Below are positions 838 through 5,856 of a stretch of 32,000 nucleotides of DNA, piece by piece (the first letter of the stretch is position 1; the number at the start of each line of letters is the position of its first letter). This stretch comes from Halorhodospira halophila SL1. Its GTDB lineage: Bacteria; Pseudomonadota; Gammaproteobacteria; Nitrococcales; Halorhodospiraceae. The notes below the pieces were generated by a model. The model was not told the origin of the DNA. It ran no database searches and saw only the letters and a program-made list of their open reading frames with translations. Where the stretch lies: positions 1,830,001-1,862,000 of the forward strand of contig NC_008789.1 in the NCBI RefSeq assembly GCF_000015585.1, given 5' to 3'. Both the position numbers and the translations under genes were made by a program.

Positions 838-1644
838 TTATTCCTCCTCCCGATAGGCCTTCTCGGCGACATGGATGAAGAAGTCGGGATCGGCATCCCG
901 ATACGTCTCCTTGAAATCGCCGTAGGTCTCGATTTTCTGGAAGCCGACCTCCTGCATCAGCCGCCGCGTGTAGTCCTTTCGCAGCGGGAACATGTTCAGG
1001 TAGTAGGTCGACCCGTCGGAGAACGCGTACTTGAACCGCGCCAGCCCGTCGTCCACATGCTCGGGATAGACCGAGACGTCATCCCCGCAGTAGTAGTAGG
1101 TGTGGCTGGAGTCGTAGCCGTGATCCAGGATGCTGTCGTAGTTCCGCTGATCCAGGATCAGGACACCGTCGTGGTTGAGGGCGGAGTAGAACTCGGCGAG
1201 GGTCTTGCGGCGGTCGCACTCGTTGAACAGGTGGGTAAAGGAGTTGCCGAGGCAAATGATAGCGTCGTAGCGACCGTGAATGTCCTGATTCAGCCACCGC
1301 CAGTCGACCTGGACGGTGCGCAGGATATGGCCCCGTTTTCGACCGTTCTCGAAGGCCTTGGCCAGCATTTCCGCACTGCCGTCGGCACTGACGACCTCGA
1401 AACCGGCCTCGCGCAGGCGAACCGAGTGAAAACCCGTGCCGGTTGCGACGTCGAGCACCCGTTTGGCGCCCCGCTTCTTGAGCTCTTGGATGAAAAAATC
1501 ACCCTCGCTCTGGGCCCGGCTGTCCCAGTCGATCAGGTCGTCCCACTTGTCCACGAACCCGTCGACATACTCCTCCGTGTAGTGATCGGTATCCCGCACC
1601 TTGGTCGGGTCCGTCCCGAAGTCCTGCTCAGTCTGAACCTTCAT
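838..1644 (-). CDS. gsmt: Glycine/sarcosine N-methyltransferase (GSMT)
   Basis: 268-aa ORF with SAM-methyltransferase motif I (VLDVATGTGFHS). It resembles glycine N-methyltransferases (DKWDDLIDWDSRAQSEGDFF, ICLGNSFTHL) and has the same length class as the characterised halophile GSMT. It lies directly upstream of SDMT. Confidence 0.9.
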   Translation of the reverse strand: MKVQTEQDFGTDPTKVRDTDHYTEEYVDGFVDKWDDLIDWDSRAQSEGDFFIQELKKRGAKRVLDVATGTGFHSVRLREAGFEVVSADGSAEMLAKAFENGRKRGHILRTVQVDWRWLNQDIHGRYDAIICLGNSFTHLFNECDRRKTLAEFYSALNHDGVLILDQRNYDSILDHGYDSSHTYYYCGDDVSVYPEHVDDGLARFKYAFSDGSTYYLNMFPLRKDYTRRLMQEVGFQKIETYGDFKETYRDADPDFFIHVAEKAYREEE

Positions 1645-1991
1645 AGGTCACCTCTGTCTGGCGATGTTCCCTATCGGCGCACGCGCGCCATGGATACAGT
1701 GCCCCACTTCGGATCGGAGACTCCGCGTCACCGGGACCGCTTGGGCAGATTGCGATTGTTCGCCTCTCTACTGCTTCCGATGGTTCTTGTGCGGCATGCG
1801 CCCTCGCACCGTGCGGGGCGTGTCTCGGACAGGGGCCTAGGCCCATTTGACGATGCCGAGCCAGCCGCGGGCCGTCGAGCGACTCCGGGTCTCGGCACCT
1901 TCCTTTACATGCCTATACGACCGCGTCGGCCGTCAGCGTGGACATACTGTGCGGGAGATCGGCGGCGAATTCAAGCCCCGGCCCCACAGGG

Positions 1992-3764
1992 TCACCGGAC
2001 CGGGCGCAAGCGCCGTTCGGCCGGGGCAGGTTCCGGAAAGTACTGACGTGACGGGACACAGGCGAGCACATCAAGTTCCCGCTGGAAGGCCCATCCCTCC
2101 CCGGGATGAACGGCCTGCCAGGCATCCAAACCGCCCGCCAGAGAGTGGGTTGTCCGCCCATCCGCGGCGTATTGCCACCCTCGGACGGCCTGCGCCTCAT
2201 CGAGCTCCCTGCGCAAGTGCCAGCGATCGCGGCCGAACTCGTCCAGCGCACCGGAGAAGATCAGCGGCTCAACCTGTATCGCCGGCGCGGTGCCTCCGAA
2301 CCCCCGGATGATGAGATCCATCAGGCTGCGGTACTCACCCCCGCGGCGGCGCAGCACCAGTCGGTCGGCGGTCTGCCGGTCGATCTGCGCAATCGCCCCG
2401 AGGCCGTAGATCACCGTGTTCCGATCCAGGGGGCGAAACCCCCAGTCGCTGCGATTGATATCCGGTGGCAGCACGGTCACACCGTCACTCAACGCCTCCT
2501 TGCAGAGGCGAATGAGAATCTCCCGATGCGGACAGACGCCATCCGGCCCGCCTCCCACCCCATAACGCACACCGCCCCGAGGCGTCACCCGCCGCAGCGC
2601 CCGGTTCAGCCGCGCAGCCTGGAAAACCGCCGGGTAGCGTGCCTTGTAGTAGGCCTGACGGTAAGCCTCGGTGACCTCGACCAGCGTGGCCGCCCGATCC
2701 ACCACCTGGGCCAGGCCCTGGCGCAGGGCACGAAGCAGATAAAGCCCCCGCGCGTAGGGAAGCTGGCAACGGGCAGCGATGCGCTCGCCGAGCTGCCGGG
2801 AAAGCTCCCCCTCGTGGGCATCGCCCCCCTCCTCGCTTAGCCGTTGTGCGAGTCCGACCGCCTCGGCCAGCTCACAACCGAGCAACCGGGCCAGTGCCGC
2901 GACCACCTGCTCGCGGTAGAGCCAGATGTATCCCGTGGGGGCGAGGATGTCCTCGAGCTCGGGATGGGGCAATGGCGGACGGCTCGCGCCCGTGCGCGCC
3001 GCCCGATACCGCTCGAGCAGACCGTGCGGCGCCCCATCTCGGGCCGCCACCACGACCTGTGTCACTTCCTCGAGACTGCGCGGCGCCGCCTCCCGCATGC
3101 GCTCCTGCAACTGCGCATCCTCCAGCAGCGGGATCCCGGCGGTCTCCCCGCGGGCGATCAGGCGCAGGGTATCCGGATCATCCCACGGATAGGCCCAACG
3201 CAGGGGATCGCAGTCGCGGTTGTCGTTGAGTGCACGGGCCAGGCGGACCATCTCGCAGGTCAAGGCGAGCGTCGGGTCGCGCCCCACCACGACCTCGATC
3301 CCCTGTTCCGGCAGCGCCGCAGCGGCCGCACCCCCCTGGCGCAACGCCGAGCCCAGTTCCGCCTGCTCGGCGCGGGTGGCGACGCGCAAGTGCAGACGCC
3401 GGGCCTCCAGCTCGCGCCCGAAGCCGAGGAACGGCAACCCGTGATCGATGGGATCGATACCGTTGAGACCCAGCAGGTGCAGCAGCAGCGACCCGCTCTG
3501 CGGGCCGTACCCCGGCCCGAAGGTGACTCCACGGCCCCGCAGATCCTGCACCACCCAGGAGAGTTCCAGCAGCACCCCCGGCTCCAGACCCAGGCGTGCA
3601 AAGGCTGCCATCTCCTGCTCGACGCGCCGCTGGTAGCGCGTACGCCGCTCGCCGAGGGCCCGGCGCACGCAGCCACCATCGGCGGCATCCCAAAGCCGAT
3701 CCCAGGCGGCGCGCTCCAGCGCGCCCCCACGGAACGGAACGATGGTCGTGGCGTCGTCGTGCAT
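1992..3764 (-). CDS. DnaE (DNA polymerase III alpha)-like protein lacking the PHP, thumb and OB domains and with a substituted catalytic motif; function unknown, possibly a pseudo-enzyme
   Basis: 590-aa ORF. By eye it aligns in a single frame to E. coli DnaE motifs: [30 protein letters not shown] vs [40 protein letters not shown] vs [24 protein letters not shown] vs [23 protein letters not shown] vs [26 protein letters not shown] vs [27 protein letters not shown] vs [22 protein letters not shown] vs LIMSGAFDRLG. High GC3 is consistent with coding. Confidence 0.7.
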   Translation of the reverse strand: [590 protein letters not shown]

Positions 3765-3770
3765 GTTCTG

Positions 3771-3800
3771 ACTATAGCCGCGCCGGAGCCAGACCGTCGA
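3771..3800 (-). promoter_or_regulatory. Candidate sigma70-type promoter directly abutting the DnaE-like ATG (possible leaderless mRNA)
   Basis: Minus strand reads TCGACG (3800..3795), an 18-nt spacer, then TATAGT (3776..3771), then 6 nt (CAGAAC), then the ATG at 3764. No Shine-Dalgarno motif lies in the 47-nt gap after tadA. An AT-rich hexamer is conspicuous in this GC-rich context. Confidence 0.3.
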
Positions 3801-3811
3801 CGCGGCCGGGG

Positions 3812-4266
3812 TTAACGCCGGGCGCGAAAGAATTCACGCAGCAGCCCGGCGGCCGCCTCGCCGGAGACGCCAGCGGTCACCTCCACCCGATGGTTATGCC
3901 CGGGCAGACCGAGCAGGTCGAACTGCCCCCCACAGGCACCGGTTTTGGGATCCGCGGCGCCGTAGACCAGGCGCTCGATGCGGGCGTGGATCAATGCCCC
4001 GGCACACATGAAGCACGGCTCGAGGGTGACGTAGAGCGTTGCCCCGGGGAGGCGATACGCCCCCGCGGCCTGACCGGCCGCGCGCAGCGCGTTGATCTCG
4101 GCATGGGCGGTTGGATCGCGGCTGACGATCGGCTGGTTCCTCCCTTCGCCGAGCAGTACCCCGTCGCGGACCACCACCGCCCCCACGGGCACCTCGCCCT
4201 GGTCCGCGGCATATCGCGCCAACTCCAGCGCTCGCGCCATCCAGGCCGCATCGGCGCGCGCCCCAC

Positions 4267-4270
<4 letters not shown>
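3812..4270 (-). CDS. tadA: tRNA-specific adenosine deaminase TadA
   Basis: CDA-fold motifs are present: [11 protein letters not shown] (HAE zinc/catalytic motif) and [12 protein letters not shown] (PCxxC). The protein resembles E. coli TadA throughout. I chose the GTG at 4270, which overlaps the guaA TGA (GTGA), because it gives the same N-terminal length as E. coli TadA. The track ORF extends to 4393, inside guaA. An ATG at 4240 is an alternative start. Confidence 0.85.

Positions 4271-5856
<1,586 letters not shown>

Follow-up and report, generated by a model that had tools for sequence, protein, structure and literature searches.

In a 32,000-nucleotide stretch of the Halorhodospira halophila SL1 chromosome (contig NC_008789.1, positions 1,830,001 to 1,862,000, called the window below), an open reading frame (ORF) was found on the minus strand at 1992..3764, and its 590-aa product is related to DnaE, the alpha subunit of DNA polymerase III (Pol III). 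Based on all analyses, it was concluded that this DnaE-like protein is very probably a derivative of DnaE1 that has been kept by selection and does not polymerise, that is, a pseudo-polymerase of the C family. As is expected of a pseudoenzyme, the homologous fold is present, the catalytic residues are lost and the gene is under purifying selection along its entire length. The family is narrow in distribution but clear-cut and testable. A wider explanation, in which a dead, domain-stripped DnaE1 paralogue arose once in Halorhodospira, was kept as a protein and became tied to the adjacent glycine-betaine operon, was considered plausible while falling somewhat short of probable.

Homology and Predicted Fold

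The DnaE-like protein was matched significantly by Pol III alpha models of both Pfam and NCBIfam. The Pfam matches were HHH_6 at residues 428-516 (E = 2.6e-20), DNA_pol3_finger (PF17657) at residues 191-311 (E = 8.4e-17) and the palm model DNA_pol3_alpha at residues 33-115 (E = 1.9e-6), the last covering positions 12-93 of a 260-position profile, which is its first third only. The NCBIfam DnaE1 equivalog NF004226 scored 129.9 bits against a cut-off of 1002 and TIGR00594 scored 131.6 bits against a cut-off of 434, when the DnaE2 model NF004225 reached 30.6 bits against a cut-off of 939. Because of the DnaE1 score of 129.9 bits (cut-off 1002) as compared with 30.6 bits for DnaE2, the protein was regarded as DnaE1-like in origin and far from DnaE1 membership. 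No ligand-binding family was present among the Pfam and NCBIfam matches.

A phmmer search against the PDB aligned residues 39-115 with residues 316-391 of the E. coli alpha subunit and residues 170-526 with residues 569-907. A first-pass annotation of the window, made from the sequence alone, had proposed by eye an alignment with the palm, the fingers and the helix-hairpin-helix (HhH) region of DnaE, and this alignment was borne out by both Pfam and phmmer.

The structure was predicted with AlphaFold2 (AF2) using the family alignment, which gave a mean predicted local distance difference test (pLDDT) score of 77.8 and a predicted TM-score (pTM) of 0.78. Residues 20-390 were mostly modelled at a pLDDT of 85-96 and the palm remnant (residues 1-165) at about 90, while the last 60 residues were disordered (pLDDT <50). 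When the model was compared with known structures by Foldseek, Pol III alpha and PolC structures only were retrieved from the PDB (best E = 1e-18, TMq 0.63), and phage DnaE polymerases only from BFVD.

Based on these data, the gene was divided into segments, all on the minus strand. The first segment (residues 1-165, 3270..3764) comprises a family-specific N-terminal strand (residues 6-11) and the remnant of palm segment I, as judged by the alignment with E. coli alpha, the AF2 model and conservation. The fingers domain follows (residues 166-395, 2580..3269), with the fold kept (Pfam match, pLDDT 85-96) and the motifs for dNTP and template, which are invariant in DnaE, substituted according to the motif comparison. 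A family-specific insertion seen in the alignment (residues 396-411, 2532-2579) precedes the HHH_6 domain of the beta-binding type (residues 412-526, 2187..2531), in which the hairpin is degenerate, as indicated by Pfam, the DnaE alignment and invariant columns. The last segment (residues 527-590 and the stop codon, 1992..2186) was delimited by conservation, pLDDT, the alignment and synonymous-site identity; it consists of a variable linker, a conserved peptide and a tail, and it occupies the place of the OB fold and the tau-binding domain. The family shows a part of the Pol III alpha fold, namely palm I, fingers and HHH_6, that is able to stand alone.

Elements Lost and Retained Relative to DnaE

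For the comparison of motifs, the family was aligned with ten full-length DnaEs. Residues 392-568 of E. coli alpha hold the DxD motif (D401 and D403), the thumb and the strand of D555. These 177 residues are replaced by 54 residues (116-169) in the DnaE-like protein; the thumb and the second palm segment are absent, and the alignment with the full-length DnaEs shows the corresponding gap. The first-pass annotation, which had described these two parts as mostly missing, was therefore correct on this point.

Further, the first phmmer block was extended without gaps, which placed His125 (present in 16/16 members) at the position of D401 and Arg127 (15/16) at that of D403. The residues R123, L124, H125, V128 and R131 are invariant in the family, and a strand at 123-128 followed by a helix at 131-144 was predicted by AF2. 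In DnaE, the DxD motif is likewise followed by a strand and then a helix. The putative ex-catalytic strand, R123-L-H125-L-R127-V128, is encoded at 3381..3398 on the minus strand and was assigned from the gapless extension of the HMMER block, the column counts and the AF2 strand. An alternative alignment produced by MAFFT had the DxD strand deleted rather than substituted. Under both the gapless and the MAFFT alignment, no carboxylate is present at the positions of D401 and D403. The residue opposite D555 is V, L or I, the KFDFLG strand is deleted, and Glu157, a neighbour of the D555-equivalent position, is Tyr in four members. The replacement of DFDVD by HLRVA, with the loss of the catalytic aspartates, had been proposed before, and it agrees with H125 and R127 standing at D401 and D403 and with the lack of Asp in the catalytic columns.

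The fingers were found to keep the fold (pLDDT >85), when all four motifs VFQLES, RPGP, EAD.LR.A..KK and YGFNKSHS are substituted in every family member. The alignment with the full-length DnaEs had GLAQRLSEE in place of MLRRAMGKK and QVVDRAAT in place of YGFNKSHS, confirming the replacements by GLAQRLS and VVDRAA recognised in the first-pass annotation. In the HHH_6 domain, the glycine of the HhH hairpin, which is kept in at least nine of the ten full-length DnaEs, is an invariant Asp462 followed by an invariant Arg463 (AxIDR). No counterpart of the QxxLF clamp motif was found in the family, the corresponding region being variable or gapped.

Both ends of DnaE are missing as well. No match to the PHP domain (PF02811) was obtained, and the DnaE-like protein begins at the equivalent of approximately residues 280-316 of E. 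coli alpha. The ATG codon lies at 3762-3764 and the stop codon of the upstream tadA at 3812-3814, leaving a gap of exactly 47 nt, so a PHP domain could not be encoded upstream of the ORF, just as had been argued from the same gap before. At the other end, the OB fold and the tau-binding C-terminal domain are absent. The ORF stops 25 residues past a segment resembling E..LG.....HP, a motif that precedes the OB fold in DnaE, and the earlier statement that the protein lacks the OB fold and the tau-binding tail was upheld.

The segments GPG.G..GS..LG..DP, PHP.L..L..T...EQ, Y.QA..K..YP, LPPDIN, GLGA, EPLI..GA.D and E..LG were retained. The most conserved block of the protein is the palm remnant at residues 61-140, with a per-block conservation of 0.83-0.88. 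Additionally, a C-terminal peptide, W.FQRELDVL(G/A)C.PS..YFP, is strongly conserved (0.86 for residues 561-580) and is followed by the tail ..RLRPVR. The claim that the DNA-contacting elements were retained held only in part: it was right for LPPDIN and GLGA and failed for the hairpin glycine, the four finger motifs and QxxLF. With these elements lost, DNA binding by the DnaE-like protein is therefore not to be assumed.

In DnaE, the epsilon subunit is contacted through the PHP domain, the beta clamp through the clamp motif and tau through the C-terminal domain. As read from the sequence comparison, the skeleton of a polymerase is kept, and its working parts, together with the elements for contacts with epsilon, beta and tau, are gone. 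Since the catalytic aspartates, the thumb, the PHP domain, the OB fold, the tau-binding tail, the finger motifs, the hairpin glycine and the clamp motif are all lost, it was concluded that the DnaE-like protein very probably cannot polymerise.

Family Range and Selection

A homology search returned 16 clusters of 554-630 aa sharing 46-100% identity, and the next matches were ordinary DnaEs at 24-29%. When a profile was searched against 1.84 billion cluster representatives, 3 representatives of the family scored 848-919 bits and nothing else exceeded 222 bits. Among the GTDB species genomes, the family occurred in eight species, which were H. neutriphila, H. abdelmalekii and metagenome-assembled genomes of Halorhodospira or Ectothiorhodospiraceae. 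The family is confined to Halorhodospira. The first-pass annotation had named Ectothiorhodospiraceae among the groups to search for orthologues, and this taxonomic guess was right.

The ORFs of the orthologues were read out and were intact in 13/13 cases, with lengths of 589-630 aa and identities down to 46%. The dN/dS ratios of the DnaE-like gene, estimated by the Nei-Gojobori method, amounted to 0.11 in the closest pair and to 0.15-0.39 in all others, at dS values near saturation, and were thus well below 1. The neighbouring genes gave 0.02-0.10 (glycine/sarcosine N-methyltransferase, GSMT), 0.04-0.17 (guaA) and 0.09-0.24 (tadA). Approximately 106 columns, including family-specific ones, are invariant across members at 46-100% identity. 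The first-pass annotation had argued from the absence of frameshifts that the gene was kept as a protein, and the intact orthologues are in line with this argument.

The third-position identity at conserved four-fold codons was flat along the gene (0.37-0.53), so the constraint acts on the protein, its 3'-encoded end included. A DNA element embedded at the 3' end of the gene was considered as a cause of the fixed synteny described below and was rejected because of the same flat synonymous-site identity.

A canonical DnaE1 of 1183 aa with the catalytic triad DDD (ABM62220.1) is recorded in the supplement of PMC12926913 for the genome that carries the DnaE-like gene, and the DnaE-like protein is therefore an extra paralogue. 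A search with the N-terminal 399 residues of the H. halophila DnaE1 yielded partial proteins only.

Gene Neighbourhood and Promoter-Like Elements

The DnaE-like gene was found to occupy a fixed place upstream of the glycine-betaine/methyl-cycle operon and its leader, which is the strongest functional lead and was missed in the first-pass annotation. In 17/17 loci, a spacer of 330-430 nt comes after the gene, and beyond it, in the same orientation and wherever the contig reaches, lie GSMT and SDMT; metK, ahcY and metF come next in the longer loci. In the window, GSMT is the first gene of the operon and is located at 838..1644 on the minus strand, as supported by gene calls, Pfam, synteny, the names given to homologues and PMC7042295.

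The upstream side varies, with at least four different junctions among the 17 loci. Most loci have guaB-guaA-tadA, and in the window the called gene for the tadA-like deaminase lies at 3812..4270 on the minus strand. The tadA gene is absent upstream in L001, L007, L012, L014 and L015. A divergent ABC transporter is found upstream of the DnaE-like gene in L007 and L015, and lipA-YkuD with two small divergent ORFs in H. abdelmalekii; in L011, an extra ORF separates tadA from the DnaE-like gene, and the same ORF lies upstream in L012. Neither imuA nor imuB was found within 10 kb on either side, nor was any Y-family or RecA-like gene, which agrees with the earlier view that the gene does not belong to a DnaE2 mutasome.

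The operon was also examined in the outgroups Aquisalimonas, Arhodomonas, Thioalkalivibrio nitratireducens and Ectothiorhodospira shaposhnikovii, in which GSMT is 77-81% identical. All four operons have the same core, an upstream spacer of 570-660 nt and a divergent neighbour, and no DnaE-like gene. Since the operon core exists without the gene in four outgroup genera, the DnaE-like gene was added at the operon head in Halorhodospira and has been kept there since. The upstream spacers of the outgroups are unusually long and may hold leaders of their own.

Imhoff reported the extended betaine cluster as unique to Halorhodospira among the Gammaproteobacteria (PMC7824335). In the non-phototrophic halophiles Aquisalimonas (L157) and Arhodomonas (L158), GSMT-SDMT-metK-ahcY were observed in one cluster; therefore, metF aside, that statement holds only for the surveyed phototrophs. 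In H. halophila, the KCl of the medium regulates the synthesis of betaine, and no regulator is named in the paper reporting it (PMC7042295).

A consensus scan of the 47-nt gap revealed a promoter-like element, TCGACG-18 nt-TATAGT, at 3771..3800 on the minus strand (read from 3800 to 3771), whose -10 box ends 6 nt before the ATG. No Shine-Dalgarno sequence precedes the ATG within the gap. At least 7 of the 13 loci share the element, two of them with a different upstream gene, and several other loci have a TAnnnT box at the same distance from the ATG. These observations suggest that the DnaE-like gene has its own promoter. Owing to the 6-nt distance between the -10 box and the ATG and to the missing Shine-Dalgarno sequence, the mRNA is probably leaderless or nearly so, and it is probably transcribed independently of tadA.

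A second promoter-like element, CTTGAAT-19 nt-CAGTAT, starts 17 nt past the stop codon of the DnaE-like gene (1944..1975, read from 1975 to 1944 on the minus strand) and was assigned to the betaine operon. Its core, TTGAA..AGTA, is invariant in the 8 loci of alignment A2. No intrinsic terminator was found between the DnaE-like gene and the operon.

A promoter-like element of the form CTTGAAAT, 18-19 nt, (A/G)GTA(T/A) is common to Halorhodospira, T. nitratireducens and E. shaposhnikovii upstream of GSMT, and in the loci L159 and L160 it is located at about 4630-4665 each. The -35 consensus of sigma-32 is CTTGAAA. The -35 part of the element equals this sequence, and the -10 part does not fit the sigma-32 consensus.

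Leader RNA Upstream of GSMT

Approximately 190 nt upstream of GSMT (1760..1950, read from 1950 to 1760 on the minus strand) were found to be conserved even where the DnaE-like proteins share only 46-50% identity. This region was folded by RNAalifold into a multi-stem structure. In an alignment of 13 sequences, 96.3% of the cells were paired and compensatory changes occurred in 17 of the 44 pairs. Shuffled alignments gave 6.5 ± 1.8 such pairs, none of 500 shuffles reaching 17, and the slid controls gave at most 5.

A covariance model of the leader scored 198.9 bits for the window and 146-199 bits for the Halorhodospira loci searched. Using this model and alignment A4, the leader was documented in 16 of the 17 loci with the DnaE-like gene, which are all 16 examined; the loci recorded with a leader are the window, L001, L004-L017, L115, L117 and L155. 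No second copy was detected in the window by the covariance model, and no homologue was detected in the spacers of the four outgroup genera by either nhmmer or the covariance model. The Rfam search gave no match at gathering thresholds over the window and none at E ≤ 10 on the relevant strand at 1550-2100.

Metagenomes were also scanned with a degenerate pattern of the leader. The pattern was too permissive, with 3 genuine leaders (L115, L117 and L155, all in the known context) among the 120 matches listed, and the scan is uninformative on occurrence outside the genus. The leader and the DnaE-like gene are adjacent, and among the loci searched both were found only in Halorhodospira. The leader was proposed to be a candidate new riboswitch, or other cis-regulatory RNA, acting on the betaine/methyl-cycle operon. 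It belongs to no Rfam family and, independently of the DnaE-like gene, can be tested as a riboswitch or leader candidate.

Possible Roles of the DnaE-Like Protein

We proposed that the acidic, Mg2+-binding strand of DnaE has turned into a basic face, which would consist of R123, H125, R127 and R131 beside the GPG.G..GS loop. In DnaE, this loop adjoins the triphosphate. The basic face might bind phosphate or another anion directly and without metal, be it a nucleic-acid backbone or a metabolite, in which case the DnaE-like protein would bind nucleic acid or an anionic metabolite without being an enzyme. The conserved short peptide in the disordered tail may serve as a protein-interaction motif. 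Most likely, such a protein would modulate the expression of the betaine operon at the adjacent promoter or at the structured leader, a link that was guessed from its fixed position before the two.

That the role of the DnaE-like protein concerns the betaine operon, either as a regulator or as an accessory factor, is a tentative proposal. A more specific version, in which the DnaE scaffold and the leader RNA (or the promoter) form a regulatory pair and the former active site or finger cleft binds the leader or an anionic metabolite, was considered unlikely. If true, the pair would be the missing regulator of the switch from KCl to glycine betaine in H. halophila, and the first replicative polymerase fold re-used as a gene regulator. 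The gene is linked to the operon that is central to osmoadaptation in Halorhodospira, a genus among the most halophilic of bacteria, and no regulator is known for the control of this operon by K+.

Several observations weigh against a function in the operon. The DnaE-like protein evolves several-fold faster than its neighbours. The 3-4 rearrangements, all on the upstream side, would arise by chance with a probability of about 6-12% by our own estimate and are suggestive only; as the synteny is also confined to one genus, the position may have been inherited without a functional link. No classical DNA- or RNA-binding regulator domain is present in the protein, and its binding to nucleic acids is not secured because of the invariant hairpin aspartate and a net charge of about 0. 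The proposed basic face itself depends on the gapless alignment and the predicted secondary structure. Searches of the literature for the gene, including expression data and any mention, returned nothing.

Some further candidates were dropped. A strongly positive protein would have hinted at the binding of nucleic acids, but the net charge did not support this, and a decoy binding the clamp, tau or epsilon was rejected, the motifs and domains concerned being absent.

Instead of serving the operon, the protein could be a non-catalytic DnaE derivative of DNA metabolism that binds primer-template junctions or other DNA, or protects DNA at molar salt, with the betaine neighbour being a matter of inherited gene order. 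This possibility, the main alternative but itself doubtful, draws on DNA polymerase being the sole detectable homologue, on the retention of LPPDIN, GLGA, the GPG.G..GS..LG..DP segment and the finger skeleton, on a predicted promoter separate from that of the operon, and on synteny statistics that are weak with all loci in one genus. However, the thumb, the hairpin glycine, the OB fold, the clamp motif and the finger motifs are lost, and therefore most of the features that mediate contacts with DNA and the replisome according to published work are gone. Moreover, none of the conserved neighbours is a gene of DNA repair or replication, and the DnaE-like gene has remained beside the betaine operon in no fewer than four upstream contexts.

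A role without nucleic acids was also examined, in which the protein is a ligand-sensing or scaffolding subunit for GSMT, SDMT, MetK, AhcY and MetF and holds, for example, an anionic metabolite at the converted face. The replacement of metal-binding aspartates by R123, H125, R127 and R131 beside a glycine-rich loop would suit such a subunit, as would the strict adjacency to the operon and the highly conserved short peptide in the disordered tail, which is typical of interaction motifs. The idea comes purely from residue patterns, however, and a predicted promoter of its own with transcription outside the operon and the lack of any match to a ligand-binding family make it improbable.

It is very unlikely that the protein is still an enzyme, acting as a polymerase or nucleotidyl-transferase through other carboxylates, or a module of a mobile element, phage or defence system. 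Four acidic residues close to the former active site, E118, E133, E136 and D104, are invariant, but the catalytic strands are free of acidic residues, the GS motif has changed, and the fingers have lost the arginines and lysines that contact the triphosphate in DnaE. Phage DnaE proteins were matched in PHROG and BFVD, but the matched proteins are complete DnaE polymerases of the ordinary kind (13-20% identity) and are not more closely related than cellular DnaEs; PADLOC gave no match, and a defence or phage origin was rejected. A mobile element is at odds with the stable chromosomal context, with the absence of tRNA genes from the window and with the lack of an integrase in the gene calls of the flanking 10 kb on each side.

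Finally, a decaying fossil pseudogene, kept open only since stop codons are rare at approximately 70% GC, would fit with the many long spurious ORFs overlapping the region in other frames and with the faster evolution of the protein, but it can practically be dismissed in view of dN/dS ratios of 0.11-0.39 at near-saturated dS, 13/13 intact orthologues with their invariant columns, a confident AF2 model, a promoter conserved at a fixed distance from the ATG, and a probability of about 6e-6 for an open 590-codon frame arising by chance (our own arithmetic, with about 2% stops per random codon at this GC).

Relation to Known Systems

The DnaE-like protein resembles DnaE1 (Pol III alpha; structures 2HNH, 2HPI and 5FKV) in sequence and predicted fold, with palm I, fingers and HHH_6 in the same order. 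In contrast to DnaE1, it has half the length and is devoid of the PHP domain, the thumb, palm II, the OB fold, the tau domain and the catalytic aspartates.

By analogy, the closest counterpart in kind is ImuB, which is also a polymerase paralogue without catalytic residues that is kept by selection and is thought to be a non-catalytic binding or scaffold protein. ImuB belongs to the Y family, whereas the DnaE-like protein belongs to the C family. ImuB has retained a clamp-binding motif and is encoded in a DNA-damage cassette together with imuA and dnaE2. Unlike ImuB, the DnaE-like protein has neither a clamp motif nor imuA, imuB or dnaE2 as neighbours, and its conserved neighbour is a metabolic operon.

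Accessory paralogues of the C family are also represented by DnaE2 (ImuC) and by truncated DnaE3 and DnaE2 variants, some of which lack the OB fold or the C-terminal domain (Timinskas et al. 2014, PMC3919608). However, a PHP domain, a thumb and an intact active site are still present in the truncated variants, and none of these is found in the DnaE-like protein. The C-terminal SRDF[H/R] motif of DnaE2 is absent from the tail, which reads ..RLRPVR. Similarly, the non-canonical PolX proteins (PMC9226535) are bacterial polymerase homologues that were retained with a degenerate polymerase site, but they keep an active PHP exonuclease, which is their function, and the DnaE-like protein has no catalytic domain of any kind.

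Two surveys of the C family removed truncated or active-site-less sequences before the analysis (PMC3919608 and PMC12926913); the latter, from 2026, discarded "strongly diverged or truncated sequences" before the phylogeny. Dead C-family proteins therefore fall into a blind spot. The only entry for H. halophila SL1 in the accessible part of the PMC12926913 table is a DnaE1, and the accessible part of the Timinskas 2014 supplement holds no Halorhodospira entry. The papers on the Halorhodospira betaine cluster (PMC7042295 and PMC7824335) do not mention the DnaE-like gene. Literature searches on the locus tag and on dead C-family paralogues returned nothing, in keeping with the earlier remark that no function had been described for a truncated, inactivated alpha-like protein.

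The DnaE-like protein is very probably a real pseudo-polymerase, and it was not found described in the literature. Polymerase paralogues without activity are known, and are important, in the Y family (ImuB), and the X family includes proteins with degenerate polymerase sites; no example from the C family was found in the literature. If the gapless alignment is correct, the family would also show an acidic metal site converted to a basic face.

Names and Composition

An NCBI entry named "hypothetical protein [Halorhodospira halophila]" has the same sequence as the 590-aa product (100% identity). The gene is probably Hhal_1679, as judged from its position beside Hhal_1677/1678, the locus tags given to the neighbouring genes in PMC7042295. 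The public names of the protein are "hypothetical protein" and "helix-hairpin-helix domain-containing protein" in NCBI and "DNA-directed DNA polymerase" in UniRef. As the active site is missing, the UniRef name is almost certainly wrong and represents an over-annotation.

The DnaE-like protein is extremely poor in lysine, with 0.3% K as compared with 12.9% R. The pI values of the family are 5.6-9.0, which makes it less acidic than GSMT (5.0) and guaA (5.3). The GC content is 61-62% in the GSMT/SDMT region (1-2000 of the window) and 69-71% in the region of the DnaE-like gene (2001-4000), and the genome GC is listed as 68% (PMC12926913). The betaine genes are compositionally distinct from the DnaE-like gene that precedes them.

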